Shown here: positions 45,134 through 63,713 of the stretch, piece by piece
How the letters are laid out: each line of letters starts with the position of its first letter
How positions within the stretch are numbered: position 1 is the first letter of the stretch
Origin: a virus
Lineage: Duplodnaviria; Heunggongvirae; Uroviricota; Caudoviricetes
Reading direction: 5' to 3' (one strand)
IMG/VR virus record: IMGVR_UViG_3300028534_000514
Span: 1 to 64,000 of that record
DNA: 64,000 bases
Notes under the pieces: model-generated
The model's input: the letters and a program-made list of their open reading frames with translations, nothing else
The model's database searches: none
What the model was told of the DNA's origin: nothing
Made by a program: the position numbers and the translations under genes

Positions 45134-48100
45134 ATGAGACGAAATCCAATATACGTATTCGAAGATTTACAGTCAATTGGAATTTACAATGTTCCTGTTG
45201 GTTCAACTGTTCAAATTAACGATGCGGATGACTTAACCCCAGGTAGCCAGCCATTGCTGGTACAAGTAGTTTCAAAGAATGGTTTAAGTACCGGTTCTAC
45301 GGTTGCTGAATTTTTAAGCAATTCTGATAATTATTCAAATGCAAGTGATTCAACTGAGATACCATCAGAGCTTGAAAAAATTGAGCAGAATGGCAAAATT
45401 GGTTGGAGAATTCTTGGTGCAGATAATACTAAATATGGTGAAATTGGTTTAAAAGCTATTGATCTAACCCAGGTTAATACTGGTGCTTCTGGTGTTGCCA
45501 GTTTCGGGGCTACTGGCGATTATGCCTTTACCGCTGGTTTCGAAACTCAGGCTTCAGGAGAGAAATCTACTGCTTTAGGGAGAGGGACTAAAACCCAAAC
45601 TCTTGGAAAAACGGTTATTGGTTCATATAATACAGATTTAAATAATACAGCATTGGTTGAATTCGGTATTGGACAGGCTGATTCCGAAAGAAAAGATGGA
45701 TTGGTTCTTTATGCTGACGGTTCTGTCGAAGCACCAAACTCCACAATGACAGCCATTGATAATAGAGGCCAATATGCCTTGATTACAAAAGAGTACCTTG
45801 ATACTATCGATGCTAAAAAAGTAAATAGATCAGGTGACCATATGGTAGGCGATTTATTCATAGATGGCGCTAGTCTTTTTGTAAGAAAAGATAATAATAT
45901 TGGTGGAGACATTTCCCTTGATGGAAGTCTAACTGTGGGTAATGGTTCTAATGGTTATAGTTATGTATATTTTAACGCTGGTAATGCGAATATAGTATAT
46001 AATACTGTTTCCAATGAATTTCAATTAGAAGGACCATCTACTTCTGGCGCACAAAGAATTTGGCATAGCGGCAATATGGGAACACAATCGGGACTTGATG
46101 CAGATTTATTAGATGGACTGCAGCCTAATGAGTTACCAATCTCGGATGCAACTTCTGCTGAACTTGATTTAAAATATGATAAAGCCGGTGGGACTATTAG
46201 TGGAAGTGTTGCTATTGAAGGAGAATTAGGCGTTACTTCAACCGCGAGATTTGGTGGTAACGTTGAGCTTGGAACGGTTACAACAGAGGTTACCTTTATT
46301 AATGATATTACAATTAATGGTGGGCTAACCGTAGGTCAATATATTTCTGGACTTGCACTGGAATTAGGTCTAGACCAAAATCAATCAAAAATTATTTTTA
46401 CAGATACAGCATCAGCTGACCCTGCTTTTTATTGGGATGCTAATAATGGATATAAAGATTTCTTTGTAGATACAGATGTTTCTGTTGGTAATGTTGTATG
46501 GCATGCTGGAAATTTCTTACCAAATGATAAATATGATAAGACCGGTGGACCTATTTCTGGAGATGTTTCAGTAAGTGGTAATATTGATGTAACCCAGAAT
46601 ATTAATGCTGATGGTGATTTAACTATTGGTGGAACGGCTATTATTTCTGGTGATTTAAGAGGAAATGCAAATCTAAATATTCTTAATAACATCACATCCG
46701 ATACTCTAAATACAACAACAGCCTCAGTTGATGGAGAATTTAATCTTGGCGGAAGCGCCCATGTTTCTGGTACAGGTATTTTTGGTAGTGGATTAAATAT
46801 TACAGGCGATAGTTCTTTCGCTAATAACCTAAATGTCGATGGTATATCAACATTTAATAATGATGTTGTAATTACAGGAAATCTTGATATAGATAAATAC
46901 TTAAGAGTTGTTGGAGATGCTTATTTCGATAAAACCGTTAGTATTGGTTATGACGCCGATAATAATTCAACAATATATTTTACAGATATTTCTGGTCGCG
47001 TTCCAGCTTTATATTGGGATAAAGACACTGCCGATTTCTTCGTAAATATAGATACTGCTACTACTACTGGTACTAAAATTTGGCACGCAGGAAATCTAGA
47101 TCCAAATGATGAAACTATATTTCCTAAACATTTTGATACCTTAGCCGATACACCGGCAAGTAAAACGAATGCTGCTGGGAAATACTTAAGAGTTTCAACT
47201 GATGAAACTAAAATAGAGTATGTTGATGTTCCTGATAATAGCGCTCTATGGGGTAATATTACTGGAGATATAAATAATCAAACAGATTTAATTGATAAAT
47301 TAAATCTTAAATTTGATAAGTCAGGCGGCACAATTAGTGGTACTTTACAAGTCGATGGTACCTCTGTATTTAATGATTTAGTAACCTTTAATAAAAAATT
47401 AACTGCTCGTGATATTGCTGAATTCGAGCAAAGTGTAACTTTTGATTTAGATATAACTGTTCAGGGCGAATCAACATTTAATGAAGATAGTACATTTGGG
47501 GCTAAAGTAAATATTTTGGGAGACATTGACGTTTCCGCTGATAGTTATTTCCGTGGGGATACTTGGATTACCGGCGACCTCGGGGTACAGGGTAGCTCGA
47601 CTCTTCAAGGAAATGTTGCTGTGCAAAATGATCTCCTTGTTCAAAATAACTTAAATGTTATGTTATCAACACAATTAACAGGTAGTACTTCTATAGGTAG
47701 CACACTTACTGTTAGTGATGAAACAACATTAAATGATAAATTATCAGCGAATGGTGATGTTGATATCCAGGGTCTTACCAGAATCTATAATGATATCCAA
47801 ATTCAAGGAGATATTTATGGTTATAGTGATGCTAGTCTTACAGGAGATTTGCGTGTAAGCGGAACTAGTTCTCTAACTGGAGACGTTGTAGCTGGGGCTA
47901 ATGTAACAGTTACTGATAACTTAACAGTTAATAAGCAGACAAATCTAATTGAAGCAGCTCACCTTCAAGACACATTAGACGTAGCCGGAACAACTTCACT
48001 AGTTGGCGATGTTAGCATGTCTAATTCTTTAACCGTTGGTACAACCTTGGATATAGGCACAAACACTACAATCGGAGGAGATTTAACGGTCAATGGTGCA

Positions 48101-49834
48101 TCTACCCTTACTGGTAATGTTTCTCTTGCAAATAATCTTTCTGTTGGTGGAGACCTAGATGTAACTGGGATTAGCACCTTTGGTGATAATATTAATATTA
48201 CAGGAAGCGGAAGCTTCACCGGGGATATTATTGTCGCTGGTACTAGTACACTTACAGGTTTGGTTACAGCAAATGATAATGTAGTTATTGATAAAAATCT
48301 TAATGTTAAAACTGACACTGATATCGATGGATTATTAAATGTTGATAGTGATGCAACCTTTGGTAATAATATAGACGTTAATTCAAATGTTTATGTTCAC
48401 CAAAATTTAATTGTTGATTATAACTCGACAGTTGATGGACTAACTGTTGGTCGTGGAGCTGCCTCATTTGAGGATACTCTAACAGTTTCCGGTTTAATTA
48501 CCGCTAATGATGGCTTGCAGGTTAATGGTGATACCACCCTAAATGGAAAGTTAGACGTATCTTTTGATACAACTATTGGTGGTAATCTTAGTGTAACAGG
48601 TGACATTACTGAAAATGGTGATAGAGTAGCAACCCTTGATAGCTCAACAGGTAAACTCAAAACCTCTCAGTTACCTGCATTGGCGATTACTTCTGTATAT
48701 GTAAAAAATACTATCTCAGAAAGAGATCAATTAGTAACAGATGGCGTTGTTGAAGAAGGGGATGTTTGTAAAGTAATTGATAGTGATGGTAACGGTAATC
48801 CTCAAACTTATATTTTGGATTCAACTGATACCTGGATTGATATTCAAGAAACATCTAATGTGATTTCTGTAAATGGACAGACTGGAGCAGTAGTTCTTTC
48901 AACAGATGATATTGCAGAAGGAACAACCAATCTTTATTATACAGATGCCAGAGCAGATGCACGCGTTCAAGCAGCTATTGACGATAACGCATGGACTGGA
49001 GACACTGATAAGATTCTTTCGGCAGATAAAATTTCAACAGAATTTACTGGAATAGATAATAGAGTATCAACAAACGAAGTAGATATTTCTAATCTTTCAA
49101 ATGAGGTTGACGCTACCCAGGCTGGTGCTGGTTTAGGAAGCGATGGTAGTTATACAGCTGATAGTACCACAAACTATATCTCTGGAGCGACTGATTTATT
49201 TAATGCTGATACGTTATTGGATTCCGCTATTAAAACTAATAGTGATAATATTACTACAAATAGTAACGATATTTCTACCTTACAAACAGATAAGCTTGAT
49301 AAAACAGGTGGTTTAGTTACTGGTGATTTAAATATTGATAATGAATATCACTTGTTAGTTAATCCATGGACATCCGGAGGCAATGTTTCTGCTCAAATTC
49401 TTGGTGATAGATTCGAATTTATCGATGGTGATAATAATATTACCGCTGGTATAATCTATGATATAACCAATAAACATGTTGATATTAAAGTAAATGATAT
49501 TACATCTATAAGTCTTGTTGAAAATGAGGCACCAAGCACTCAATTCCAACCTACGGCTACTAATCACTTAACTCGTAAAGACTATGTTGACAGTGAAATA
49601 GCTTCTATTCCTACACGTCATACTCAAGATGAGGATGGTGATGGAACAACAGTCGAGTATACAATCTCTGGAATTATACTTACAAATTCAGATATTGATG
49701 TATTTATCGATGGGGTAATGCAGCGCCCAGATGGGTCAATTTATACTGTTTCTGATAATGGTACAGATACAAAAGTATCATTTAATACCGCGCCTGCAAA
49801 CGGTGCATGGATTAGATTTAATTATTATAATTAA
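45134..49834 (+). CDS. large tail-fibre / tail-spike-like protein (1566 aa) with beta-helical repeats
   Basis: Conserved N-terminal domain MRRNPIYVFEDLQSIGIYNVPVGSTVQINDADD shared with 3 downstream paralogues. Long runs of degenerate G/N/T/D/V-rich repeats (NLNVDGISTFNNDVVITGNLDID...) typical of fibre shafts. Confidence 0.7.
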   Translation: MRRNPIYVFEDLQSIGIYNVPVGSTVQINDADDLTPGSQPLLVQVVSKNGLSTGSTVAEFLSNSDNYSNASDSTEIPSELEKIEQNGKIGWRILGADNTKYGEIGLKAIDLTQVNTGASGVASFGATGDYAFTAGFETQASGEKSTALGRGTKTQTLGKTVIGSYNTDLNNTALVEFGIGQADSERKDGLVLYADGSVEAPNSTMTAIDNRGQYALITKEYLDTIDAKKVNRSGDHMVGDLFIDGASLFVRKDNNIGGDISLDGSLTVGNGSNGYSYVYFNAGNANIVYNTVSNEFQLEGPSTSGAQRIWHSGNMGTQSGLDADLLDGLQPNELPISDATSAELDLKYDKAGGTISGSVAIEGELGVTSTARFGGNVELGTVTTEVTFINDITINGGLTVGQYISGLALELGLDQNQSKIIFTDTASADPAFYWDANNGYKDFFVDTDVSVGNVVWHAGNFLPNDKYDKTGGPISGDVSVSGNIDVTQNINADGDLTIGGTAIISGDLRGNANLNILNNITSDTLNTTTASVDGEFNLGGSAHVSGTGIFGSGLNITGDSSFANNLNVDGISTFNNDVVITGNLDIDKYLRVVGDAYFDKTVSIGYDADNNSTIYFTDISGRVPALYWDKDTADFFVNIDTATTTGTKIWHAGNLDPNDETIFPKHFDTLADTPASKTNAAGKYLRVSTDETKIEYVDVPDNSALWGNITGDINNQTDLIDKLNLKFDKSGGTISGTLQVDGTSVFNDLVTFNKKLTARDIAEFEQSVTFDLDITVQGESTFNEDSTFGAKVNILGDIDVSADSYFRGDTWITGDLGVQGSSTLQGNVAVQNDLLVQNNLNVMLSTQLTGSTSIGSTLTVSDETTLNDKLSANGDVDIQGLTRIYNDIQIQGDIYGYSDASLTGDLRVSGTSSLTGDVVAGANVTVTDNLTVNKQTNLIEAAHLQDTLDVAGTTSLVGDVSMSNSLTVGTTLDIGTNTTIGGDLTVNGASTLTGNVSLANNLSVGGDLDVTGISTFGDNINITGSGSFTGDIIVAGTSTLTGLVTANDNVVIDKNLNVKTDTDIDGLLNVDSDATFGNNIDVNSNVYVHQNLIVDYNSTVDGLTVGRGAASFEDTLTVSGLITANDGLQVNGDTTLNGKLDVSFDTTIGGNLSVTGDITENGDRVATLDSSTGKLKTSQLPALAITSVYVKNTISERDQLVTDGVVEEGDVCKVIDSDGNGNPQTYILDSTDTWIDIQETSNVISVNGQTGAVVLSTDDIAEGTTNLYYTDARADARVQAAIDDNAWTGDTDKILSADKISTEFTGIDNRVSTNEVDISNLSNEVDATQAGAGLGSDGSYTADSTTNYISGATDLFNADTLLDSAIKTNSDNITTNSNDISTLQTDKLDKTGGLVTGDLNIDNEYHLLVNPWTSGGNVSAQILGDRFEFIDGDNNITAGIIYDITNKHVDIKVNDITSISLVENEAPSTQFQPTATNHLTRKDYVDSEIASIPTRHTQDEDGDGTTVEYTISGIILTNSDIDVFIDGVMQRPDGSIYTVSDNGTDTKVSFNTAPANGAWIRFNYYN

Positions 49835-49851
49835 TCATATAATTCTGTTTT

Positions 49852-49919: not shown

Positions 49920-51158
49920 ATGAGACGAAATCCATTATATGTTTTTGATAATCTGGATTCTAAAGGAATCTATAATGTTCCTCTTGAATCAACTGTCCAA
50001 ATTAATGATGCGGATGGAAACGGATCAACATTGATTGTCCAAGTTAGTTCTAAAGATAATATGGATGTGAATACGACCATCCGAGATTTTTTACAGCTTG
50101 AGGACAATTATGAAAGACCTGGCACTATAGGAATGCTTACTGATGATGCAAAAGGGCAACCAGATGGTGTAGCACCTCTCGATGAGAATGGTTTAATTCC
50201 TGGACGTTATATCCCAACGATGGATATTAATAATGCTTACGTTGTAAATACTGTACAGGATATGTTAGATATATCAAATACTAGCCAGGCTAATATAGGG
50301 GATGTTTGTATTGTCACGGATACAAATGAGACTTATATTTACAATGGCGATCATACAGGTACTGTTGCAGACTGGACAAAACTTATTATTAATATAGGAG
50401 ATGTTCAATCTGTAAATGGGAAAACGGGTGTTGTTGTATTAAATGCTGATGATATTGATGAAGGCGCAATTAATCGTTATATGAATCCAACGTCTTTTAA
50501 AGATTATTTTAGACAGGAGCCCATTCAAAATTTATCGAATGTAATTGATGGTCCTGCTAATGTTGGAGACGCCTTAACTTTTGATGGAACGAATTGGGGA
50601 GCTGCCCAGATCCCACAAAAAGTAGTTTCTGTTAATGGATTTGATGGGGTTGTTAATCTAACCACTTCTGAAATTTCTGAAAATGGAAATCTTTATTATA
50701 CAGATGATAGAGTAGATAGCCGTATTCAAACTGAATGGATCGACCCAATTTCTGGTATAGGTGATTATAATAAAATATGGTCAGCTGACAAGATTGCTAC
50801 TGAATTATCATATTTAACTACTAAAGATTATGTTGATAATGGACTAGAATTGAAATTTGATAAAGTTGGTGGGACAATTACAGGGGATGTTTTAATCGAT
50901 GGACAATTGACATTATCAAATGGCGATATTAAAATTGGCGATAGTAATGGTATTTCTTTATATCCAGATGCTGCCCCAACGACAGACTGGGAACCAACCG
51001 AACCAGATAGTTTAGTAAGAAAAGACTATGTTGATGGGGAAATTGCATCAAGAGTTGCAGTTGATCCTGGAGATTCAATAGCTACTGATATTGAACAGTT
51101 AGTATCAGATTATAATGACCTTCTTTCTAATTTAAGAAATGCTGGTATTATAGCATAA
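49920..51158 (+). CDS. tail-fibre paralogue (412 aa)
   Basis: N-terminus MRRNPLYVFDNLDSKGIYNVPLESTVQINDADGNG. SD aaaaaggagaaataATG. Shares SVNGQTG.VVL..DDI.EG..NLYYTD motif with the 1566-aa protein. Confidence 0.6.
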   Translation: MRRNPLYVFDNLDSKGIYNVPLESTVQINDADGNGSTLIVQVSSKDNMDVNTTIRDFLQLEDNYERPGTIGMLTDDAKGQPDGVAPLDENGLIPGRYIPTMDINNAYVVNTVQDMLDISNTSQANIGDVCIVTDTNETYIYNGDHTGTVADWTKLIINIGDVQSVNGKTGVVVLNADDIDEGAINRYMNPTSFKDYFRQEPIQNLSNVIDGPANVGDALTFDGTNWGAAQIPQKVVSVNGFDGVVNLTTSEISENGNLYYTDDRVDSRIQTEWIDPISGIGDYNKIWSADKIATELSYLTTKDYVDNGLELKFDKVGGTITGDVLIDGQLTLSNGDIKIGDSNGISLYPDAAPTTDWEPTEPDSLVRKDYVDGEIASRVAVDPGDSIATDIEQLVSDYNDLLSNLRNAGIIA

Positions 51159-51171
51159 AAAAAGAAAGATT

Positions 51172-51268: not shown

Positions 51269-54067
51269 ATGAAACGAAATCCGTTATACGTCTTTGATAA
51301 TTTACAATCGACCGGTATATATAATGTACCAGTCGATTCTACTATACAAATCAATGACGTAGATTCGCAAGGTACCCCAAAAATTATTCAGTTAACTTCC
51401 AAAGAAGGATTGACTCCTGATTCAACTATAGCACACTTTTTATCATTAAATGATAATTATGTTGATCTCAACGAAGCTACTGAGATACCATCAGAGCTTG
51501 AAAAAATTGAGCAGAATGGCAAAATTGGTTGGAGAATTCTCGGTAGAGAAGAAACAGATTATGGTCCAATAGGAAAAGAGGCTTTTGATTTTAGTAAAGC
51601 TTTTAATATCACAGATCCCTCTGCTAATTATGGAGCCACTGGCGATTACTCCTTCGCTGAAGGATACAGAACTAAAGCCGTTGGCTGGGCTTCGCACGCC
51701 GAAGGGTTAGGCACGATTGCTTTGGGAAAGGCAAGCCATGCCATGGGATTATATAATGTTGGTCAAAATCCAAATAATATTCTCGAGATTGGTTGTGGGC
51801 TTGGTATCGGTACACGAGAGAACGCTCTTGAGATAACAACCGACGGGGAAATAACAGCACCAAATTTATCAATTAATAAAATTAATAATAAAGGACAACA
51901 ATCCCTTGTTACAAAAGAATACAGTGACCAAAATTTAAATTCTAAAGTTAATAAAGCTGGAGATACAATAACAGGAAATCTTTATGTTATAGGAGACAAT
52001 CCGAGTTTTGATTACTCGTTCACCAATGAAGGGTTAGCCCTATTTAAAAATGGGGTAACCCTTGAAAAAACTATCAAGATTGGTTTAAATAGTTCTTTTA
52101 ATTCCGAAATTATCTTTACTGATAATAATCAAAATTTAAATCCTTCTATTTATTGGTCAGATACATACAAAGATTTTTATATTAAAAATAGTATTCGGCC
52201 GGATAATAAGATATGGCATAGTGGTAACGATGGTGAAAACTCTGAACTAAGTGCAGGATATTTAGGGACTTATCGTTGGGATGAAATTGCTCCAAAGACA
52301 TACGTTGATAATGGATTAGAATCGAAATTTGATAAAATTGGCGGTCAAATAACAGGAGATGTATCTATAGATGGTGATTTACTTGTTTTTGGAAGAACCC
52401 AAACTCAAAGTCTTCGTATATTAGATAATGTTGTAGTTGACGGAACAAGTACGTTTAGACAACAGGTAATATGTGATACCAATTTTATTTCGAATTCAAG
52501 AGTATATTTAAACGAGTTATATGCCGCCTCCGGTACTATAAAAACAATATCTGATATTGAATTTAATAAATCGTATTTTAATGATATTCCTGAATTTGCT
52601 TTTGGTTTATTTATTAAATCAAATAATGGGAAATCATCTGTTGATTTTGAAAACCCAAATACTGGAAATAATACTTCCATCTTTTGGAGCACGACCGATA
52701 ATGCATTCATGGTAACTGATTCCGATGGTAATGATTATAAATTATATCATGGAGGGGAACTTCCACCGTCTTCCGGGGTTTCGGAATTTGACCAATTAAC
52801 AGATACACCCTCATCAAAAGTTGGTAATAGTCAAAAATATCTAAGAGTATCTACAGATGAATCAACTCTTTATTATGATGAGTTAGATGCAACACAAATA
52901 ATTGATGATACTGCTGGGAATAATATTACTGATAAAACCTGGTCAGCAAATAAGATATATGATGAATTACTTACAAAACTTAATATAAATGGTGGTAGCA
53001 TTTCTGGTTCACTTGCTATCTCGAATAATCTGACCGTAAATGTTGATGCGTATATCGCGAATTCATTACAGGTAGATGGTGGTTTAGCTGCAGATACCTT
53101 TACTTCGAATGAAGTTGACTTTTTAGGAAAAGTTGTTATATCTAATGATTTAAATGTAAATTCTATAACTAGAACACAAGGGTTATTTATATATGCCGAT
53201 TCAAATAATAATGATCGTTCAAGTATAGCTTTCGAAGAACTTGCTAACCCTGTTGGTGTAAAGCCAGCTTTATATTGGGATAATACAGATGAACTTTTTA
53301 AAATAGATGATAATTATGGAATTGGGCAAGAGCTTTGGCATAATGGTAATCTAAATTTAGATGGTTTTGTGCGTACTGATCAACAAAATTCATTTGCCGA
53401 GCTAAATTACTTTAATGGTGGGTTAGATGTTACACAATATCCATTAACTACTGACGAATTAGAAGTAAAACTTGGGAGAATTTTCATAGGCCCTGATGGA
53501 AATTATGAATCAGGTATAGAATGTGATGATTATGACACAAGCACTACCCCACCAACAGCAACTGGAGATATTCCAAGATTTTATTGGGATCCTAATGCTA
53601 AACAATGGGCAGTAAATGCATGGGACTTTTTAAATCAGGATGCGAATGGAGATCCAGATCCAGTATTTAGTCAAAATTTACGTGTTTGGCATATGGGGAA
53701 TTTTAATCCTGATACAAAATTTGAGGTTATCGGTGGGGATATTTTTGGTGATGTTCATATTCAAGCTAGTCCAACTAACAATGGTAATGGCGATTTAACT
53801 GTTGATGGTGATTTAACTGTTGGTGGCGCGGTTGTTTATGATGATATTGGTACTGTAAATCTTACAGTTTCCGGTAATGTTTCTTTCGATGGAACGGAAA
53901 CTGGAGATCAAGATTTTTCTATCGCAGGAGATGTTAGAATTACAATTGATTCAGACGAGGTTAATTTTAATGGGACACAAATCTTTATGAATAATTTACC
54001 AACAAGTGATCCTGGAAATTCTGGTCAATTATGGAATGATGCTGGGACTCTAAAGATTTCATTATAG
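51269..54067 (+). CDS. tail-fibre paralogue (932 aa)
   Basis: N-terminus MKRNPLYVFDNLQSTGIYNVPVDSTIQINDVDSQG. Contains a 62-nt stretch identical to 45353-45414 (TEIPSELEKIEQNGKIGWRIL). Confidence 0.65.
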   Translation: MKRNPLYVFDNLQSTGIYNVPVDSTIQINDVDSQGTPKIIQLTSKEGLTPDSTIAHFLSLNDNYVDLNEATEIPSELEKIEQNGKIGWRILGREETDYGPIGKEAFDFSKAFNITDPSANYGATGDYSFAEGYRTKAVGWASHAEGLGTIALGKASHAMGLYNVGQNPNNILEIGCGLGIGTRENALEITTDGEITAPNLSINKINNKGQQSLVTKEYSDQNLNSKVNKAGDTITGNLYVIGDNPSFDYSFTNEGLALFKNGVTLEKTIKIGLNSSFNSEIIFTDNNQNLNPSIYWSDTYKDFYIKNSIRPDNKIWHSGNDGENSELSAGYLGTYRWDEIAPKTYVDNGLESKFDKIGGQITGDVSIDGDLLVFGRTQTQSLRILDNVVVDGTSTFRQQVICDTNFISNSRVYLNELYAASGTIKTISDIEFNKSYFNDIPEFAFGLFIKSNNGKSSVDFENPNTGNNTSIFWSTTDNAFMVTDSDGNDYKLYHGGELPPSSGVSEFDQLTDTPSSKVGNSQKYLRVSTDESTLYYDELDATQIIDDTAGNNITDKTWSANKIYDELLTKLNINGGSISGSLAISNNLTVNVDAYIANSLQVDGGLAADTFTSNEVDFLGKVVISNDLNVNSITRTQGLFIYADSNNNDRSSIAFEELANPVGVKPALYWDNTDELFKIDDNYGIGQELWHNGNLNLDGFVRTDQQNSFAELNYFNGGLDVTQYPLTTDELEVKLGRIFIGPDGNYESGIECDDYDTSTTPPTATGDIPRFYWDPNAKQWAVNAWDFLNQDANGDPDPVFSQNLRVWHMGNFNPDTKFEVIGGDIFGDVHIQASPTNNGNGDLTVDGDLTVGGAVVYDDIGTVNLTVSGNVSFDGTETGDQDFSIAGDVRITIDSDEVNFNGTQIFMNNLPTSDPGNSGQLWNDAGTLKISL

Positions 54068-56161: not shown

Positions 56162-56170
56162 GACTCGGAA

Positions 56171-56416
56171 ATGCAATCATGTGAACCACCTTCTTTATTA
56201 TGGTTGAAAGCTATAATTTATAGAATAGTTAGAATATGTATAGTATTTATTTCCGGTTATTTTATTCTCGGAGATACATCAACTGCGATGGAAATAGCTG
56301 GGGTTGACCTAATTGCGGCCACTTTATTCTATTATTATTTTGATAAGTGGTGGTGTCATCTAGAAAGAAAAATAAGACAATTATATTTAAAATGGAAATA
56401 TAGAAAACTTGGTTAG
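56171..56416 (+). CDS. small membrane protein (81 aa)
   Basis: Two hydrophobic helices. Confidence 0.35.
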   Translation: MQSCEPPSLLWLKAIIYRIVRICIVFISGYFILGDTSTAMEIAGVDLIAATLFYYYFDKWWCHLERKIRQLYLKWKYRKLG

Positions 56417-57417: not shown

Positions 57418-59826
57418 ATGCCTCGCATTATACTTAAAAAGAATTCAAGTGCTGGTAGTGTCCCATTAAATTCTGAATTGGAATTGGGTGAATTAGCAAT
57501 AAATACAAATGATGGTAAATTATTTACTAAAAAATTTGATGGTGTTCGTGAGTCGGTCGTTGAGATCGGTGGCGGAGGAACCCCTACTGGATTGGAGGCT
57601 CTAGATGAAGGTAATGGAATCGGTTGGCGTTTAATCGGTCGAGATCCAAATGTTTATGGCGATATCGGATTCCAAGCAGTCGATTTTAGTTATAAAGATC
57701 CGACAAATGAAGTGTCTACTTTAAGGGGAGCAACCGGTCAAGGATCAACGGCATTTGGTTATGATACTATAGCCAGTAATAATGATTCATTTGCTGTTGG
57801 TTATAAAACTAATGCTAATGGCGATCATTCCTTCGCTGAAGGAAATTTTACATCAGCAGATGGCATTGGTTCACATGCCGAAGGGTTAGGTACAAAAGCC
57901 ACTGGTAATTATAGTCACGCAGAAGGACGCAATACTTATGCTGCAGCTTATTATAGTCACGCCTCTGGTTCGTACACAACTGCGGGTTATATTAACCAAT
58001 TTGTAATTGGTACAAATAACCTTAATAAATCAACTACTTATTTTGAGGTCGGTAACGGTACAGGTGGTTCGGGCGGCGATGATAGCAATGCCTTCGAGGT
58101 TTATAGAACAGGTGAGATTTTTGCACCGGTGTTAACACCTTCTTTAATTGATAATGCTGACAATAAAGTTCTTGTTACTAAAGAATGGGTTCAAGCTAAT
58201 GCTGGGTCCGGTGGGAATCTAATTAATATTGATAATGGTTATGGAATTCCAGAAGCTGTTGATAATACAGGTACCGTTGGAACAAGAGCTATTGATTTTT
58301 CTGTTAACGGTGACGGCGCTACAGGAACAGGAAGTTTAGCCGTCGGAGAATATAATGAAGCTTCAGGAAATTACGCAGTAGCGTTTGGAGGATACGCAAC
58401 AGCAAGTGGAAATTATTCCTTCGCCGTTGGTTATGGTATAAAGGCAAGTGAAAGTTGCTCAATAGCCACTGGGTATAATACAACTGCCTCAGGTAGCTAT
58501 TCAAGTGCTTCTGGGTATTATACAACGGCTAGTGGTGATTATTCAACAGCTTTTGGATATTATGCAACAGCAAGTGGTGATTATTCAACAGCTTTTGGTG
58601 TGAATACGAGCGCATCCGGGACAAACTCATTTGCTATTGGTTATAGAACAGTAGCTAATAAAGAAAGTATGGTTGCTGTTGGTAAATATAATGCAGCCTT
58701 CGAAGATAATCAAATATTTGTAGTTGGTATTGGTACCGCTATGGAAGATTATAGGAATGGACTTGAGGTATTTACTGATGGGCGTGTTCAGGCACCGGAA
58801 CTATCTATTGCTTTAATTGATGATGCTAATACAAGCGATAGAGTTCTCGTTACACGAGAATGGGTTCAAGCTAATGCTGGTGGAGGAAATCCAACTGGAT
58901 TGGAAGCTCTGGATGAAGGTAATGGAATCGGTTGGAGATTAATTGGCCGAGATCCAGATAACTATGGTGACATCGGACTGAACGCTATTGATTTAAGTTA
59001 TTATGATCAATCTAGCACAGATCGTGGAGCAACAGGTACCGGATCATTTACTGTTGGCTACGCTGTTCGTGCACAAGCTGATTATTCAGCAGCTTTTGGT
59101 TATTCGACCACAGCTAAAGGTAATTATACAATTACTCAAGGTTATCATACTACAGCTTACGCTACAGGATCACATTCTGAAGGTAAAGGAACAGCTACTT
59201 ATGCAGATTATTCCCACGCTGAGGGTGTAAATACATATACTTATAATACCGGTGCTCACTCTGAGGGTTATCAGACAAACGCCGCGGCTGAATACAGTCA
59301 CGCTGAAGGTGTCCATACCCAAGCTAGTGGCTATGCTTCGCACGCTGAGGGATTCTATACACAGACAAGTAATGACTACTGTCATGTTATGGGTACCTAT
59401 AACGTAGATACTGATTATACAGTTATGCAAGTTGGTATCGGTGATAGCTCAACACGAAAAAATGCTTTTGAAGTATTTACAGACGGAACATTATATGCAC
59501 CTGAACTATCAACGACTGTTATAAATAATGCTGATCCACGAGTTCTTATCACAAAAGAATACGCTGATGCGAACTACGGTGGTTCTGGCGGAGTTGCTTC
59601 TCTTAACGACATCGGGGATGTCGACGTTGCAGGTGTAACCGATGGTCAAATTATTCAATGGAGTGCTGGTTCAAGCACTTGGTTAGCAACTGATCTTCCG
59701 GGTGGTGGAAACCTTCTATCAGATGGTAGTGTTCCGATGGATACAGGTTATACACCAGTAAATGATCAGGATATTGCTACAAAATATTATGTAGATAATC
59801 ATGATGTTGATGGAGGAACGTTCTAG
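57418..59826 (+). CDS. tail-fibre protein (802 aa) with YadA/Hep_Hag-like 14-residue repeats
   Basis: N-terminus MPRIILKKNSSAGSVPLNSELELGELAINTNDGKLFTKKFDG. Dozens of (S/Y)SHAEG..T.A.G.YSHA repeats. Internal duplication of GTPTGLEALDEGNGIGWRLIGRDP. Confidence 0.6.
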   Translation: MPRIILKKNSSAGSVPLNSELELGELAINTNDGKLFTKKFDGVRESVVEIGGGGTPTGLEALDEGNGIGWRLIGRDPNVYGDIGFQAVDFSYKDPTNEVSTLRGATGQGSTAFGYDTIASNNDSFAVGYKTNANGDHSFAEGNFTSADGIGSHAEGLGTKATGNYSHAEGRNTYAAAYYSHASGSYTTAGYINQFVIGTNNLNKSTTYFEVGNGTGGSGGDDSNAFEVYRTGEIFAPVLTPSLIDNADNKVLVTKEWVQANAGSGGNLINIDNGYGIPEAVDNTGTVGTRAIDFSVNGDGATGTGSLAVGEYNEASGNYAVAFGGYATASGNYSFAVGYGIKASESCSIATGYNTTASGSYSSASGYYTTASGDYSTAFGYYATASGDYSTAFGVNTSASGTNSFAIGYRTVANKESMVAVGKYNAAFEDNQIFVVGIGTAMEDYRNGLEVFTDGRVQAPELSIALIDDANTSDRVLVTREWVQANAGGGNPTGLEALDEGNGIGWRLIGRDPDNYGDIGLNAIDLSYYDQSSTDRGATGTGSFTVGYAVRAQADYSAAFGYSTTAKGNYTITQGYHTTAYATGSHSEGKGTATYADYSHAEGVNTYTYNTGAHSEGYQTNAAAEYSHAEGVHTQASGYASHAEGFYTQTSNDYCHVMGTYNVDTDYTVMQVGIGDSSTRKNAFEVFTDGTLYAPELSTTVINNADPRVLITKEYADANYGGSGGVASLNDIGDVDVAGVTDGQIIQWSAGSSTWLATDLPGGGNLLSDGSVPMDTGYTPVNDQDIATKYYVDNHDVDGGTF

Positions 59827-59828
59827 TT

Positions 59829-60524
59829 ATGTCTGATAAACTATTCGGTCCGTGGATTCGGACTAAACCAAAATATATTTTTGATATTTTTGAGGATAAT
59901 AGTTCCGTTGCGTTATACCCTTTTGATAATAGTTTAGTAGACTATGGAAATGTTCATCATCTTCATGTTCATGCCGGTATAAATCAATTCGGTTCAGGAG
60001 TATTATCCACTTCAGAGATATCGTCAGGAGTAGTTCTAAGAACTGCCCCAAATGATTATTTATTCCAAAATAATCATTATACAGTTTCCTTTTGGATTCG
60101 AGGACATTCGGAGATGAGTACAGATAATTGGCCAGGTATTTTTGCACAAGGACCAGATGGTCCTTATGGCACACAATTAATTATAAATGACAGTTTAGAG
60201 TTAAGAATATCGTATGGACACGCCGTAACCTATTTAACTGGTGCTTTTATCGTCGAAGGAGAGTGGCATCATGTTATTATATCATCGGATGGAGCCAATG
60301 GTGCTGATGTATATTACGATGGTAGCGCCATTAAACATCTTGATGAATTAGAAAGTAATACTGATAGTAATAATAACATTGGGTGTACATCAATAAAAAG
60401 TTATTATAATGCCTATTATGATACAGAATATATGATAGACGCAGATATTGATCATTTTAGAATTTTTAACAGAGGAATATCCTCAGAAGAAGCTCTTGCT
60501 CTTTACCAAGAAAAAAAATTATAA
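59829..60524 (+). CDS. concanavalin A-like lectin / LamG-like domain protein (231 aa)
   Basis: EGEWHHVIISSDGANGADVYYDGSAI is the LamG-type W.HV..T.DG....LYVDG pattern. ATGA-type coupling to the upstream fibre gene. Confidence 0.5.
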   Translation: MSDKLFGPWIRTKPKYIFDIFEDNSSVALYPFDNSLVDYGNVHHLHVHAGINQFGSGVLSTSEISSGVVLRTAPNDYLFQNNHYTVSFWIRGHSEMSTDNWPGIFAQGPDGPYGTQLIINDSLELRISYGHAVTYLTGAFIVEGEWHHVIISSDGANGADVYYDGSAIKHLDELESNTDSNNNIGCTSIKSYYNAYYDTEYMIDADIDHFRIFNRGISSEEALALYQEKKL

Positions 60525-60573: not shown

Positions 60574-62061
60574 ATGGCTATTAGCATTCAATTAAAAAGA
60601 GGACCAAGTACTAATCTTGGAAATATTACTGCGAAAGATGGAGAACTCGTTTGGTTAACGGACGAAAAACGTTTTAGAGTCGGTTCAGACGATGGTACTA
60701 CTCAATCTTGGCAAACCCTTAGTTATGCACAGATTGATTCAAATGGTTTAGTTCCATCAACTCAGCTGCCAATTGACGATACAGCTGGTGTTGGAGATAC
60801 TGGAAAATTACTTTCTGCTGATGAAATTGCAAATAGATTAACTTCTGGTGCTACTTATCTTGGATTATGGAATCCAGACGGTTCAGGTGGACCAGGTACA
60901 CCAGCCCTTAGTGATGGAACTGGGGATAATGGAGACTTCTATATTGTTGAAACTGGTGGCGACGCTGATTTCGGTAGCGGAACAATTACCTTCATCGAAG
61001 GTGATAGAGTTATGTATCAAACAAGTGATAATACTTGGAAAAGAATTGTTTCTGCAAATAGTGTTGACTCAGTAAATGGTCAAACAGGTGTAGTTATTCT
61101 TGGAATGAATGATATTAATGATGTCATCATTGATAGCGGAACATTGGCTGCTGATGACTATATTAAATGGGATCCAACAGCTGATGGTGGTAATGGAGCT
61201 TGGGTAAATGCAGCACCACAATCAGTTGCTATTGATGACTTGAGTGATGTTGATACAACTACTGTTGCCCCAACTGTAGGTCAAACACTTAAATGGGACG
61301 GAACAAACTGGACTCCACAAGATGACAACAACTCAATTGCTAGTCTTGATGATATCGGCGATGTTAATGTTACTGGTGTAACTGATGGACAGATTATTGT
61401 TTGGGACGATGCTTCCGGCGAATGGCAGGCAAGTGATCTTCCAACTGGTGTTGATGGTACCTTTATTGGATTAACAGATACCCCAAGTGCATACAATAGT
61501 GGTGATGCCGGCAAATTTGTAAAAGTTAATGCTGCAGAAGATGGACTTGAGTTTGTAGAAGTAACTACTGATGGTATTGCTGAAGGTTCTACAAATCTAT
61601 ATTATACAGATGCTCGTGTTGATGGTAGAATTGCCGCTGCTAATATTGAAGACCTAGCTAACGTAACTGTTACTAGTGTTTCAGATAATGAAATTCTTCA
61701 GTGGAATTCAAGTACAAGTCAATGGGAAAATGTAGCAATCTCTAACGTAACTGTTCAAAGCATTGATGATCTTGATGATGTTGATACTTCTACAACTGCA
61801 CCTACTGATGGTCAAACACTTAAATGGGATGCAGCCAACAGTCAGTGGGTACCTGCTGATGATATTGATACAGATACAACTTATACTTCTGGCACAGGAA
61901 TCTTTATCGATGAAGAAGGCGGAAATTCAATTAATCTTGATGCTGGAATTGATCTATTGACTGATGTTGATACAACAACTACTGCTCCGAGTACAGACGA
62001 TGTTCTTTCATGGGATGGTACAAACTGGGTACCAACTGCTATTGATGGTGGACAATTCTAG
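60574..62061 (+). CDS. tail-fibre-like protein (495 aa) with D/T/V-rich repeats
   Basis: Repeats D(D/V)DTTT(V/T)AP(T/S)(V/D)GQTLKWDG(T/A)NW and NLYYTDARVD, also present in the 1566-aa fibre. Confidence 0.55.
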   Translation: MAISIQLKRGPSTNLGNITAKDGELVWLTDEKRFRVGSDDGTTQSWQTLSYAQIDSNGLVPSTQLPIDDTAGVGDTGKLLSADEIANRLTSGATYLGLWNPDGSGGPGTPALSDGTGDNGDFYIVETGGDADFGSGTITFIEGDRVMYQTSDNTWKRIVSANSVDSVNGQTGVVILGMNDINDVIIDSGTLAADDYIKWDPTADGGNGAWVNAAPQSVAIDDLSDVDTTTVAPTVGQTLKWDGTNWTPQDDNNSIASLDDIGDVNVTGVTDGQIIVWDDASGEWQASDLPTGVDGTFIGLTDTPSAYNSGDAGKFVKVNAAEDGLEFVEVTTDGIAEGSTNLYYTDARVDGRIAAANIEDLANVTVTSVSDNEILQWNSSTSQWENVAISNVTVQSIDDLDDVDTSTTAPTDGQTLKWDAANSQWVPADDIDTDTTYTSGTGIFIDEEGGNSINLDAGIDLLTDVDTTTTAPSTDDVLSWDGTNWVPTAIDGGQF

Positions 62062-62320: not shown

Positions 62321-63424
62321 ATGGCACAAACAATAAAACTAAAAAGGTCAGCGACTGCTGGTAAAGTACCAGCTACAACAGACTTAGAACTGGGTGAAAT
62401 AGCAATTAATACTTATGATGGAAAAGTGTTTATTAAAAAAGATGATGGTTCTGAATCTATAGTAGAGGTAACATCCGCTTCGGGTGGAGGAGAACTTATT
62501 AAAGACGGTGTTGGGTATCGTATTAATGGTTTATCTAATGATACCTTGGGTACAAATGCGGTTAACTTAGCTGTCGGAGGTATAGCGAGCGATTATGCTT
62601 CTTTTACTGAAGGTTATCAAACTGAAGCGCGTGATGATTACGCGCATGCAGAGGGGAATGCAACCCTTGCTTCTGGAAAAGGTTCACACGCTGAAGGATA
62701 TTATACAGAAGCAAGCGGTAATTACTCGCACGCGGAAGGCTATAAAACAAAGGCAACCAATGATTATGGTTCTCACGCTGAAGGTAATTATACAACGGCT
62801 AGTGGAGTATCGTCTCATGCAGAAGGTTATAAAACTGAATCTGGTGGAATTTATTCACATGCTGAAGGTAATGTAACAACAGCTGAGGGATATGGTTCCC
62901 ATTCAGAAGGTGGGTTAACTAAAGCGAGCGGTTATTACTCTCATGCTGAAGGATATTTTACAATTGCTCAAAATGATCATATGCATGTCGAGGGTAAATA
63001 TAACGTAGGAACAGCCACTGATACAATTCATGAAACAGGTATTGGTGCCGATGGTGATAAGAAAAATGCTTTCGAAATCTATATTGATGGTAAAGTAGTT
63101 GCTCCAGAATTAACAACTACTTTAATTGATGATACCAATACTTCCAATAAAGTTCTTGTTACTAAAGAATGGGTTCAAGCTAATACCGGGGGCGGCGGAG
63201 TCTCTAGAACAGTTGAGAAACTTACAGGTGACGGTTCAACAACAAGCTTTACTTTAACTAACACTTATGTTGTGGGTTCAGAAACCCTAGTAGATGTATA
63301 TGTTGATGGTCTTCTTAAAATAGAAGGTAGTTCTGAAGATTATACATTATCTAACGGGGATACACTGGATTTTACAACTGCACCAAGTAATGGTTCGGCT
63401 ATTATTGTAAAAATTTTAAGTTAA
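62321..63424 (+). CDS. tail-fibre-like protein (367 aa) with Hep_Hag-like repeats
   Basis: N-terminus MAQTIKLKRSATAGKVPATTDLELGEIAINTYDGKVFIKKDDG. Repeats YSHAEGY.T.A. Confidence 0.55.
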   Translation: MAQTIKLKRSATAGKVPATTDLELGEIAINTYDGKVFIKKDDGSESIVEVTSASGGGELIKDGVGYRINGLSNDTLGTNAVNLAVGGIASDYASFTEGYQTEARDDYAHAEGNATLASGKGSHAEGYYTEASGNYSHAEGYKTKATNDYGSHAEGNYTTASGVSSHAEGYKTESGGIYSHAEGNVTTAEGYGSHSEGGLTKASGYYSHAEGYFTIAQNDHMHVEGKYNVGTATDTIHETGIGADGDKKNAFEIYIDGKVVAPELTTTLIDDTNTSNKVLVTKEWVQANTGGGGVSRTVEKLTGDGSTTSFTLTNTYVVGSETLVDVYVDGLLKIEGSSEDYTLSNGDTLDFTTAPSNGSAIIVKILS

Positions 63425-63433: not shown

Positions 63434-63465
63434 TAAAGAATAAAGAATAAAGAATAAAGAATAAG
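63434..63465. repeat. tandem heptamer repeat (aagaata/aataaag x4.5) in the promoter/leader region
   Basis: aaagaataaagaataaagaataaagaataagg. Confidence 0.6.
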
Positions 63466-63473
63466 GATAGAGA

Positions 63474-63713
63474 ATGGATACAAAACCAATATATCATTTT
63501 AATGACGCGACCGAAACAGGTATAGATAAAGTGCCAGCTAACGCAAAGGTCTATATTTTAGATAGCGACGGGAGCGGTACTCCAAAAGAAGTAACTAAAG
63601 TCGCAATGGGAACCTTAGATGGAACAAGTACTATTGCTGATTTTCTTAACGATAGTACTCTTTTTAAAGAAGTAACTGCATCTGTTGGTGATATTTCAGG
63701 AGGAACATACTAA
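63474..63713 (+). CDS. short paralogue of the fibre N-terminal domain (79 aa)
   Basis: MDTKPIYHFNDATETGIDKVPANAKVYILDSDGSGTPKEV parallels MRRNPIYVFEDLQSIGIYNVPVGSTVQINDADD. Confidence 0.4.
   Translation: MDTKPIYHFNDATETGIDKVPANAKVYILDSDGSGTPKEVTKVAMGTLDGTSTIADFLNDSTLFKEVTASVGDISGGTY

Follow-up and report, generated by a model that had tools for sequence, protein, structure and literature searches.

The DNA analysed here (hereafter the window) comprises 64,000 nucleotides of a phage contig of 285,272 bp. It encodes an RNAP beta-like protein, whose closest cultured relatives belong to jumbo phages, together with a primase-helicase, RecJ, Endonuclease VII, nrdA/nrdB, and a tRNA cluster, and the phage probably encodes its own multisubunit RNA polymerase. 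A fibre cluster comes after nrdA/nrdB, and no baseplate or tail gene adjoining it was found within the window. Between positions 45134 and 64000 we found seven fibre-like genes, a gene for a 79-aa mini-protein, one for a ConA-like lectin, and a DUF4376 gene (Table 1). All open reading frames listed in an earlier sequence-only reading are present where it placed them, but seven of its nine fibre-like genes are fibre-like, the eighth being the mini-protein and the ninth the DUF4376 protein. Four non-fibre genes (54264-56416) interrupt the cluster, and the Laminin_G_3 gene at 59829 lies within it. Megablast of 45134-57000 against a cultured-phage collection gave no match, and tblastn of g51269 against cultured phages gave a single marginal one.

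Table 1 Genes and sequence features at the fibre cluster, in window coordinates
Feature	Position	Strand	Description
Promoter-like box AACAAAGAT	45101..45109	+	upstream of g45134
g45134	45134..49834	+	1566 aa; N1 adaptor aa 1-~70; junction and YadA-like head/neck aa ~75-230, then repeats; bactofilin-like beta-helix aa ~800-1110 (Pfam Bactofilin 6.4e-12); g49920-like segment aa 1122-1491; T7-fibre-N-like end domain aa 1494-1560
62-nt tract	45353..45414 (= 51479-51540)	+	encodes TEIPSELEKIEQNGKIGWRIL
g49920	49920..51158	+	412 aa; N1 adaptor, then SVNGxTGxVxL/NLYYTD repeats; phi29 head-fibre-like C-terminal tail (Phage_head_fibr 8.6e-5, sub-threshold)
g51269	51269..54067	+	932 aa; N1 adaptor, one YadA-like head/neck, shaft; PGxxGQLWxDxGxLxI end
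g54204	54264..55025 (true start 54264)	+	253 aa; probable sulfotransferase fold, non-fibre
g55098	55098..55958	+	286 aa; APS-kinase-like P-loop (aa 2-85) and adenylyl/cytidylyltransferase-like domain (aa ~140-286)
g55955 and g56171	55955..56416	+	68 aa; 81 aa, DUF2061 membrane protein (Pfam 5.4e-11)
g56505	56505..57368	+	287 aa; N2 adaptor, one head/neck module, PGxPGTLYxDxxGxVxV end
g57418	57418..59826	+	802 aa; N2 adaptor; three tandem YadA-like head/neck cassettes, aa ~55-262, 262-490, 490-722; DVDxxGQxxxW repeat; ...DGGTF end
40-nt exact match	58161..58200 (= 63145-63184)	+	NKVLVTKEWVQAN
g59829	59829..60524	+	231 aa; concanavalin-A-like lectin/glucanase fold (Laminin_G_3 1.1e-14)
g60574	60574..62061	+	495 aa; Mtd_N-type N-terminus, DVDxxAPxxGQxLxWD-type repeats, ...DGGQF end
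g62321	62321..63424	+	367 aa; N2 adaptor, one head (seven 14-residue SHAEG repeats) and neck; T7-fibre-N-like domain aa 296-363 (Phage_T7_tail 3.9e-5, under cut-off)
g63474	63474..63713	+	79 aa; stand-alone N1 domain, conserved ...GDISGGTY end
g63713	63713..64000, 3' end cut by window	+	DUF4376 (Pfam 8.4e-7)

The proteins begin with one of two N-terminal adaptors. N1, a domain of ~68 aa common to Family 1 (g45134, g49920, g51269, and g63474), has no match in Pfam or PHROG. The N-terminal similarity proposed for these genes was borne out by pairwise blastp (E 7e-21 to 1e-5) and by a profile that, in 1.84 billion proteins, retrieved 383 cluster representatives with E up to 1e-3, 169 of them with E up to 1e-10. 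Among the matches listed, N1 lay at residue 1 in 150 of 150 representatives (61 to 1606 aa), head modules were present in 51 of these 150, and recurrent end types reappeared. Scanning IMG/VR with N1 peptide patterns gave 88 pattern matches, none of them confirmed. Guaymas Basin sediment is one of the places where the lineage occurs (one MAG contig).

The second adaptor, N2, appears to be an N-terminus of the T4 gp37/Mtd_N type. As proposed, it unites Family 2 (g56505, g57418, and g62321, whose N-termini are 45-61% identical), but an N2-type N-terminus is also borne by g60574, which had been left outside. The three Family 2 proteins match the Mtd_N/gp37 type only via PHROGs and tblastn (E 1e-5 to 1e-13). 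They share IxLKRxxxxGxxPxxxxLxxGELxxNxxDxKLF at residues 1-55 with T4 gp37 and BPP-1 Mtd (Pfam PF18454; PHROGs 1699, 19966, and 35830, 'long tail fiber protein distal subunit'), and g60574 has a diverged form of this motif. In its best matches, N2 is 41% identical to the N-termini of T-even gp37 and 74% identical to proteins of Vibrio phages, whereas the parts downstream of N2 are unrelated to the gp37 shaft/tip or the Mtd C-type-lectin variable region. g60574 scored 20.7 bits against Pfam Mtd_N, under the cut-off of 26.3, and its orthologue L008:932-2110 scored 32 bits, over the cut-off. g60574 also matched phrog_9627 (2e-33) and phrog_677 (2.8e-23), and has orthologues in the relatives L008/L016 and L009. 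The Mtd_N resemblance raised the idea of a diversity-generating (DGR) target, which was rejected for want of a template/variable repeat pair: the window holds no long near-identical repeat pair, and no RT was found among the ORFs scanned.

Behind the adaptor there would follow an interchangeable body of YadA-like left-handed beta-roll heads with necks, beta-helical shafts, and short repeats. YadA/Hep_Hag repeats had been ascribed to Family 2, and g57418 indeed matched YadA_head (PF05658) in seven stretches with 110 bits (E=4.9e-32; cut-off 25), but the same head module is present in the Family 1 genes g45134 and g51269. g56505 stayed under the cut-off at 23 bits and g62321 had no Pfam YadA_head match; both are 36-44% identical to g57418 over the module. 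The SHAEG repeats are spaced by 14-15 residues, and their sequence matches in PDB are the heads of BpaC, Hep_Hag, YadA, and EibD, while PDB sequence searches with g45134 and g60574 found nothing. Head-bearing proteins carry one to three heads in the window and up to ten in relatives. Furthermore, the first ~660 aa of g45134 have a collinear counterpart in g51269 (34% identity, E 8e-81). The proteins appear to finish in a few recurrent C-terminal types, namely ...DGGx[FY], PGxxGxLWxDxGxLxI, and a T7-fibre-N-like beta domain. The last bears only a resemblance to the T7 tail-fibre N-terminal domain (PF03906), which matched g62321 at its C-terminal side with 23.8 bits against a cut-off of 25.2; this end is 67% identical to the end of a 749-aa fibre of L009. 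By analogy with the relatives of their folds, the fibre proteins are probably trimeric. The two 'families' are not separate lineages: both draw on one head cassette, and the adaptor is the main difference between them. Domain matches and the sharing of modules across both families thus upheld the proposal of a modular paralogous fibre cluster with two adaptor families, and the seven fibre proteins appear to be put together from a common stock of modules.

The two small genes at the end of the window had been taken for a truncated fibre and a 5'-partial fibre, and neither description held. Metagenomes repeatedly contain g63474 homologues, 74-80 aa long and conserved in their ...GGT[YF] end, which are followed by a DUF4376 gene, and the pair is kept in L001 and L009. 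The family is thus conserved, as are its C-terminal motif and its partner gene, and on these grounds we rejected g63474 as a decayed fibre. g63713 loses its 3' end at the edge of the window, its ATG overlaps the stop of g63474 (TAATG), and the DUF4376 protein is ~108-111 aa at full length in relatives. It matches phrog_1141 'tail fiber protein' (5e-8) and, by this homology, is a predicted member of the tail-fibre assembly/fibre-associated family. For DUF4376 (PF14301), an association with Caudo_TAP has been reported. Like DUF4376/tail-fibre assembly proteins elsewhere, this one is small, lies directly after fibre genes, and is translationally coupled to the upstream gene; unlike them, it is paired with a 79-aa stand-alone N1 rather than placed after a full-length fibre, and is a candidate chaperone. 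The pair is probably a stub or adaptor with its assembly factor, and judging from L001 and L009 the cluster would continue past position 64000. The lectin-like g59829, which begins 3 nt past the g57418 stop and is thereby coupled to the triple-head fibre, is a probable accessory adhesin; in L011 its slot is occupied by a Peptidase_C1 gene.

The non-fibre genes include a conserved cassette, which encodes a protein of probable sulfotransferase fold, a fusion of APS-kinase and nucleotidyltransferase domains, and a membrane protein of the DUF2061 family. The fusion, g55098, scored 28.6 bits against APS_kinase (cut-off 21.1) and is a putative miniature PAPS-synthase-like enzyme. Its homologues are syntenic in L008, L009, L011, L014, and L016 at 59-65% identity, and g55955/g56171 are syntenic in L008, L011, L014, and L016. 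The cassette sits between N1 and N2 fibre genes in the window, L009, L011, and L016, and in L014 and L015 its neighbours are fibre genes with YadA heads. Sulfation by its products could act on the fibres or on the host surface that they bind. No description of a phage-encoded sulfotransferase was found in the literature searched, and a GTDB scan for the family gave no clue to the host, its single match being a 3.1-kb contig placed in a Guaymas Thermoplasmata MAG.

Boxes identical to AACAAAGAT also lie at 49890, 51233, 56466, and 57375. The window holds seven copies against 1.7 expected, all seven in sense orientation and 27-45 nt 5' of an ATG. A separate promoter-like box of this type stands before six of the seven fibre genes, the variant of g60574 being AACAAAATAT, and g62321 has a palindromic element in its place. 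AACAAAGA[TA] precedes fibre genes in L009, L011, and L016 as well. The AACAAAGAT box resembles the AR9 late promoter AACA-N6-TA. Hairpins that look like terminators stand between several of the genes, in many cases with a TTTTCCTGTGC box behind them. Given these boxes and hairpins, most genes look like separate expression cassettes. A sigma-70 promoter scan of the region stayed at chance level.

Taken together, we consider it likely that an uncultivated jumbo phage of ~285 kb has its fibre/adhesin cluster at 45.1-64 kb, with modules shuffled on two adaptors. N1 and N2 would most likely fix the docking site of each fibre, either on the virion or on another fibre. The second option leads to a tentative alternative, to which we give less than even weight, that the genes encode serial segments and connecting pieces of a single long fibre or of a few, composite or branched, as in T4 gp34-gp35-gp36-gp37. 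The N-terminus of T4 gp37 connects the distal half-fibre to gp36, and N2 corresponds to this part. Several proteins are also more conserved at both ends than in the middle; for example, g62321 and its L009 counterpart share 67% identity in the end domain and 48% in the N-terminal third, with most of the middle giving no reported match. It is equally tentative that the C-terminal end modules dock the N1/N2 of the next subunit, with mini-proteins of 79-127 aa as joints. Proteins made only of an adaptor and an end module do exist (g63474, a 112-aa protein of L002, and a 127-aa protein of L008/L016), and the order of a fibre with a T7N-like end, a 79-aa N1 protein, and DUF4376 is kept in the window, L001, and L009. 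On the other hand, there are at least three end types, and 102 of the 150 N1 proteins listed have 'other' ends. Moreover, YadA-like heads are adhesive in bacteria, so a head-carrying protein could bind receptors itself. Going further, N1/N2, the recurrent end modules, and the adaptor-only mini-proteins could make up a docking code by which fibres plug together; that the locus goes beyond alternative fibres, combining such a code for a branched network with a conserved cassette for sulfation, seems to us unlikely.

The tail location and receptor binding of the fibre proteins are suggested by annotation-level homology and family names, from which the labels 'tail' and 'host range' derive. PHROG matches of the fibre type include 'tail fiber', 'long tail fiber distal subunit' (on N2), 'minor tail', and 'baseplate wedge tail fiber connector', and tblastn of the fibre proteins matched annotated tail fibre, tail spike, and minor tail genes. 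In a cultured Flavobacterium myophage, a head-bearing homologue is placed among annotated tail fibre/spike genes. Pfam matches of window genes to T7-tail, Mtd_N, and head-fibre families all stayed under the curated cut-offs. That some or all of the proteins are instead capsid, neck, or whisker fibres serving as decoration would fit the resemblance of the g49920 C-terminus to that of the phi29 head fibre, several PHROG matches labelled 'head and packaging / virion structural protein', and the lack of tail genes adjoining the cluster in the window. Nevertheless, the head-fibre match covers 29 residues under the cut-off, most named PHROG and record annotations refer to the tail, and a T4 gp15-like tail gene abuts homologous fibres in L014, which makes a capsid or whisker position quite improbable.

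Relatives hold syntenic clusters of differing composition, so that the comparison of cassettes among related phages that had been called for did reveal differently composed versions. The putative sulfotransferase gene is preceded by three Family 1 genes in the window, likewise three in L011, two in L016, and one in L009. L011, a relative of 274 kb, also has a long, a short, and a mid-length Family 1 gene, arranged as in the window; its fibre orthologues are 30-39% identical to those of the window, and the neighbouring enzymes 57-81%. This synteny led us to reject a recent burst of paralogues, and with it the view of the expansion as recent; to judge from these identities, the paralogues are old and fast-evolving.

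The 62-nt tract shared by g45134 and g51269 is, as had been noticed, 100% identical. It is the longest exact repeat of the region, the longest in three control regions of the window being 20-29 nt, and its flanks are ~60% identical. Within it, 19 of the 20 codons for identical residues are the same, compared with 42% outside (P~1e-7). The tract lies at the 5' boundary of the head cassette directly after the N1 domain, and the 40-nt match is placed where the head/neck cassettes of g57418 and g62321 end on their 3' side. Exact 24-nt matches also mark cassette boundaries within g57418 (57604/58912 and 58182/58857); apart from the 62-nt and 40-nt patches, the longest exact repeats are <=26 nt. The peptides that flank the head cassette, (E/G)LExIxxxxxGWRxxG on the 5' side and VTKE[WY]VxAN on the 3' side, contain the longest exact nucleotide matches between paralogues; they would therefore serve as homology patches at which cassettes are duplicated or exchanged and short gene conversion takes place. 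The recent gene conversion that had been proposed thus survives as at least one short patch, which is statistically well supported, and two patches in all are convincing. Self-comparison revealed no extended nucleotide identity and left the 62-nt match isolated, which the sequence-only reading had named as counting against it, although the N-terminal similarity that it had put at stake alongside is significant. The equivalent junctions in L011 are 53% identical with a longest run of 6, so conversion at the head-boundary site is not general. Recombination at this locus shows as module-level mosaicism with micro-patches at cassette edges, rather than extended recent conversion, and the fibre set would evolve through module shuffling.

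The identity of the 62-nt tract might alternatively be maintained by selection on the nucleotides themselves, as an internal regulatory site or RNA element, with no gene conversion. Both copies contain a sigma-70-like hexamer pair, and the encoded peptide is conserved in other phages. However, promoter-like matches in the region are at chance (81 found, 84.5 expected), and relatives encode nearly the same peptide with other codons (69% nucleotide identity in L004 and 53% in two L011 paralogues), which argues against a constraint at the nucleotide level and leaves this explanation very improbable.

For the distal tail-fibre genes of T-even phages, recombination at conserved motifs was reportedly described by Tetart, Desplats and Krisch in 1998 in J Mol Biol. 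As in that case, short conserved patches flank variable adhesin segments here, the longest exact matches lying at cassette boundaries; the motifs differ, however, and exchange is deduced here from paralogues within one genome and from metagenomic relatives. The heads themselves share with those of trimeric autotransporter adhesins (TAAs; YadA, BpaC, EibD, and Burkholderia Hep_Hag) the 14-residue SxAxG repeats and significant matches to solved left-handed beta-roll heads. Unlike TAA heads, they carry neither a membrane anchor nor an apparent signal peptide, and they sit in phage fibres, bounded by the GWRxxG junction and VTKEW neck peptides and duplicated in tandem. The literature searched gave nothing specific on Hep_Hag/YadA heads in phage fibres. 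That the YadA-repeat proteins are bacterial-type autotransporters, displayed on the host cell as cargo, is scarcely credible, even though the repeats resemble the heads of BpaC, YadA, and EibD in sequence, and we rejected it since Pfam scans found no YadA_anchor beta-barrel domain in any protein of the cluster, and since in our reading the N-termini look like phage adaptor domains rather than signal peptides and the C-termini like phage-fibre-type motifs.

Multi-fibre apparatus is already known in jumbo phages, and the set described here is an elaborate but normal host-recognition kit. Further multi-fibre or branched sets of receptor-binding proteins are those of PhiK64-1 and CBA120 (TSP1-4). 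The Klebsiella jumbo phage phiKp24 has 14 putative fibres (PMC9700779). Sets of the phiKp24 type resemble the present cluster in their grouped paralogous fibre/spike genes, in short conserved N-terminal anchors with variable distal parts, and in a presumed function of broad or flexible host recognition. Their distal parts are depolymerase beta-helix spikes, whereas those found here are YadA-like heads, beta-helical shafts, and short repeats; moreover, N1, unlike their anchors, matches no described family, and the present cluster is known from its genes alone.

Modular fibre-gene clusters with common anchors are an accepted route by which large phages widen or switch their host range, and our main finding fits this pattern. 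N1, an unannotated adaptor whose attached parts range from tails of 10 residues to fibres of 1,600 aa, could serve to recognise fibre genes in this uncultivated jumbo-phage lineage, and the AACAAAGAT box is a candidate promoter motif for its fibre (probably late) genes. YadA-type heads emerge as duplicable cassettes whose boundary sequences, with their recombination patches, can be identified. If the sulfotransferase/APS-kinase cassette is functional, it would link sulfation to phage adsorption.

The N-termini of the four Family 1 genes (g45134, g49920, g51269 and g63474, named by start coordinate) align with 16 invariant columns and pairwise blastp E-values of 7e-21 to 1e-5. A profile of these sequences and seven metagenomic homologues was searched against 1.84 billion proteins and matched 383 cluster representatives (E<=1e-3), 169 of them at E<=1e-10. 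The match begins at or beside residue 1 in all 150 representatives listed (61-1606 aa); 51 of these have head modules, up to 10 per protein, 20 are no longer than 90 aa, and their C-terminal ends include 29 GGx[FY] ends, 13 domains resembling the T7 tail-fibre N-terminal domain (T7N-like) and at least six of GxLWxD type. No Pfam or PHROG model covers this region, N1, which appears to be an undescribed adaptor domain and is new to the finding. The N-termini of Family 2 (g56505, g57418 and g62321) are mutually 45-61% identical, and their residues 1-56 match the PHROGs 'long tail fiber protein distal subunit' and 'tail fiber protein'. By tblastn they match T-even gp37 N-termini at 41% identity and Vibrio phage proteins at 74% over 50 aa, and this adaptor, N2, appears to be of the known gp37/Mtd_N type. 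Both common N-termini proposed by the sequence-only reading are thus borne out, and every ORF it listed exists. It set g60574 outside Family 2; that gene is real, but its N-terminus is a diverged Family 2 copy (Mtd_N match, E 4e-4, below the curated cut-off), and its orthologue in the related locus L008 lies above the Pfam Mtd_N cut-off.

All-against-all protein comparison and motif mapping (see table) show that the two families share their body modules and are set apart by the adaptor. The beta-helix of g45134 was identified by Pfam at 6.4e-12 and YadA_head in g57418 at E=4.9e-32, and the repeats, of the known YadA head type, match the solved heads of BpaC, Hep_Hag, YadA, CbpF and EibD in sequence. 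Such repeats had been assigned to Family 2, where they are real, with three tandem head copies in g57418, but they are not confined to it, as g45134 (aa ~77-230) and g51269 (aa ~74-228) have one copy each. Clear cassette boundaries, marked by the peptides (E/G)LExIxxxxxGWRxxG (5') and [VL]VTKE[WY]VxAN (3'), are a further new piece of the finding.

Features of the fibre locus, the rest of the window and related loci
Feature	Position	Composition or placement
g45134	45134	N1 - head/neck - repeats - bactofilin-like beta-helix - g49920-like segment - T7-fibre-N-like end domain
g49920	49920	N1 - SVNGxTG/NLYYTD repeats - short coiled tail
g51269	51269	N1 - head/neck - shaft - PGxxGQLWxDxGxLxI end
g56505	56505	N2 - head/neck - end type as in g51269
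g57418	57418	N2 - three head/neck cassettes - DVD...GQxxxW repeat - ...DGGTF end
g60574	60574	N2-like - repeats - ...DGGQF end
g62321	62321	N2 - head (seven SHAEG 14-mers)/neck - T7-fibre-N-like end
g63474	63474	N1 - ...SGGTY end
62-nt match	g45134/g51269	5' boundary of head cassette
40-nt match	g57418/g62321	3' boundary of head cassette
Two 24-nt matches	g57418	between cassettes
AACAAAGAT boxes, window	14474(-), 32750, 45101, 49890, 51233, 56466, 57375	
Box, relatives	L009 8353; L011 14265; L016 5316/5645/13526/16380	
GAGCAATTGCTC	10067, 16689, 20601, 22978, 27516, 30962, 37177, 40145, 51178, 54216, 62261, 62278	
52-nt inverted repeat pair AAAACAGAATTCTTTAAAGAAGATATTCTTCAATTAAATAAAA	20442-20493 / 55036-55087	one copy directly upstream of g55098
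TAAAGAA tandem repeat	63434-63475	immediately upstream of g63474 start
tRNA cluster: Leu-TAA, Ser-GCT, Met-CAT, Asn-GTT	8756-9646(-)	
Laminin_G_3 ConA-like lectin	59829-60524	directly after multi-head N2 fibre
Peptidase_C1, papain-like	L011 16829-17779	same slot
RCC1/WD40-like repeat protein, 1058 aa	L009 18883-20750	after 79-aa/DUF4376 pair
Split nrdA	L009 1484-5136	
DUF723 or HNH-type endonuclease genes	L011 10770-11306; L016 298-1212, 15676-15999	within or beside fibre/sulfotransferase locus

The two copies of the 62-nt stretch are fully identical, and no exact direct repeat in 45-64 kb is longer; in three other regions of the window, taken as controls, the longest repeats are 20-29 nt. Of the 20 codons for identical residues inside the tract, 19 are the same, against 42% (41/98) outside it in the aligned N-terminal 260 residues (P about 1e-7). 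Identity is not extended, however: the flanks are ~60% identical, and apart from the 62-nt and 40-nt patches no match exceeds 26 nt. Head-cassette boundaries carry four of the five longest exact matches. Relatives keep the junction peptide with different codons (69% nucleotide identity between the relative L004 and the window; 53% between the two paralogues on the relative contig L011, whose longest shared run is 6 nt), which argues against functional constraint on the tract at the nucleotide level and for recent short-patch conversion in the window genome. The same comparisons show that conversion at this junction is occasional and not universal. The gene conversion read from the match is therefore upheld by the codon comparisons, limited to a short patch in this genome.

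Scanning metagenomes with the N1 profile and looking up the sulfotransferase-like neighbour yielded syntenic loci. The 273.7-kb L011 carries the Family 1 trio in the same order (>1641, 470 and 959 aa) at only 30-39% identity to the window genes, which rules out a recent expansion; its homologues of the neighbouring g54204, g55098 and DUF2061 genes are 57%, 65% and 81% identical. Synteny with variable content is seen elsewhere as well. In L016, L008 and L005 two N1 genes take the Family 1 position and are followed by N2 genes (393, 127 and 514 aa), an HNH-type gene and one for a 1482-aa protein made of N1, several head cassettes and a T7N-like end. On L009, a 290-kb NCBI contig, one N1 gene (484 aa) occupies that position, with N1 minis of 111 and 79 aa, two N2 fibres and an RCC1-repeat protein past the DUF4376 gene. 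Modules are mosaic, with N1 joined to a g57418-type tail in a 112-aa protein of L002 and N2 joined to a T7N-like end in the 127-aa protein of L008. Across these loci adaptors, bodies and ends are freely recombined, and the paralogue set is thus ancient, fast-evolving and combinatorial; of the expanded, recombining cluster first proposed, recombination stands, but the expansion is not recent. Relatives also contain endonuclease genes at the locus, and in L009 nrdA is broken into two ORFs, with ~140 residues added where they meet; mobile nucleases could promote module shuffling there.

The 79-aa g63474 had been taken for a truncated fibre, a reading ruled out by recurrent metagenomic proteins of 74-80 aa with its fold and a conserved ...GGT[YF] end, and by the pairing of the 79-aa and DUF4376 genes, kept in L001 and L009. 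The partner ORF at 63713, previously read as a 5'-partial fibre, is instead 3'-partial, its ATG overlapping the g63474 stop (TAATG) and its frame open at the 3' window end, and encodes a DUF4376 protein (~108-111 aa in relatives), not a fibre. Downstream of this pair L009 has the RCC1/WD40-like gene and L001 another N2 fibre, which suggests that the window's cluster runs on past base 64000. Four non-fibre genes (54264-56416) divide the cluster, and the lectin gene begins 3 nt past the g57418 stop. This slot holds a lectin in the window and a peptidase in L011, so the accessory subunit appears exchangeable.

The non-fibre gene g54204 most likely starts at 54264, because identity to the database protein P0008, which begins there with MYTIESNN, runs from that point, and the mechanical start, the ATG that opens 54204-54263 (ATGATTATTTTC...), falls within the repeated palindromic element. 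Its family is well conserved (75 homologues, 45-78% identity) and has no Pfam domain; in one member, P0080, the protein is fused to an APS-kinase-like domain. Among its conserved motifs, HxVKSAGxS and REPxxWxxS resemble PAPS 5'-phosphosulfate and 3'-phosphate binding motifs. The adjacent g55098 is a fusion of an APS-kinase-like P-loop domain and an NMNAT/cytidylyltransferase-like domain. In the window, L009, L011 and L016 the cassette, usually accompanied by a DUF2061 membrane protein, separates the N1 from the N2 fibre genes; in L014 and L015 it adjoins YadA-head fibre genes. We found no description of a phage-encoded sulfotransferase in the literature, and the putative sulfotransferase/APS-kinase-like cassette is an unexpected, new piece of the finding.

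Promoter-like boxes precede individual genes. The window has seven copies of AACAAAGAT, where 1.7 are expected; each lies in sense orientation 27-45 nt before an ATG, and five of them precede fibre genes. Fibre genes of L009, L011 and L016 are likewise preceded by AACAAAGA[TA]. The box overlaps the AR9 late-promoter consensus, A(-11)ACA-N6-TA/G(+1) (PMC7598289), with a full fit in only three of the five fibre-gene copies. Hairpin terminator-like sites lie between several cluster genes, often followed by a TTTTCCTGTGC box, and AACAAAGAT often comes after this pair. The palindrome GAGCAATTGCTC has 12 copies against 0.08 expected, often within a ~49-nt element, GATTATTTTnGAGCAATTGCTCnnnnnGAGCAAAAGC, built of GAGCAA/TTGCTC half-sites. 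Some copies are just upstream, in sense, of nrdA, g51269, g54204, g62321 and the 22931(-) gene, others are within ORFs, and the palindrome is almost absent from related loci; it may be an operator/promoter array for a phage DNA-binding protein. The TAAAGAA 7-nt repeat has ~6 copies, and g56505 and g57418 are preceded by comparable A-rich leaders, AAAGATAAAG. The 52-nt inverted repeat, 88% complementary, may be another common regulatory element.

The window (G+C ~33%) has no near match among 50,697 cultured-phage records. Database proteins seen on a metagenomic contig of 285,272 bp match g63474 and the 253-aa product starting at 54264 exactly. Elsewhere in the window are genes for a multisubunit-RNAP beta-like protein, a primase/helicase of DnaG type, RecJ, Endonuclease VII and four tRNAs, with nrdA and nrdB directly upstream of the fibre cluster. 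The best cultured relatives of the RNAP beta-like protein (Listeria LPJP1, Fusobacterium JD-Fnp, Bacillus phage Goe21, Yersinia phiR1-37 and Staphylococcus S6) are only 23-27% identical to it. The source is therefore an uncultivated jumbo phage, distant from anything cultured. Phages phiR1-37 and AR9 have uracil DNA (PMC7598289). The affinity of the RNAP beta-like gene to the PBS1/AR9/phiR1-37/S6 group, with the box partly fitting the AR9 late promoter, raises the question of whether the window phage may have it too. PBS1 and S6 are uracil-DNA phages as well.

The fibre-like proteins would form trimeric virion fibres, in which N1 and N2 set the attachment site and the heads, lectin and distal ends bind host surface structures. 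Their assignment to the tail is inferred from the family names, a T4 gp15-like gene beside homologous fibres in L014, and the closest homologue in culture, which lies among genes annotated as tail fibre/spike in a Flavobacterium myophage. The boundary peptides may serve as homology patches for cassette exchange, by analogy with T-even gp37/gp38, in which recombination between conserved motifs was reportedly described by Tetart et al. 1998. As a serious alternative, several of the proteins may make up composite fibres, as serial segments or branches, with the conserved C-terminal modules as sockets for N1 or N2. Adaptor-plus-end mini-proteins, fibre ends more conserved than middles, and the conserved order of T7N-like-ended fibre, 79-aa N1 gene and DUF4376 gene favour it, and it is compatible with separate virion fibres rather than exclusive of them. 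T7-type N-terminal anchors are rejected, as the resemblance is sub-threshold and C-terminal, and so are DGR targets, as the window showed no template/variable repeat pair, and autotransporters, as Pfam scans found no anchor domain in the proteins. Large phages such as phiKp24, with its 14 fibres (PMC9700779), likewise carry many clustered fibre/spike paralogues on common N-terminal anchors. A modular fibre cluster of this kind is ordinary in principle, and the side observations are worth following.
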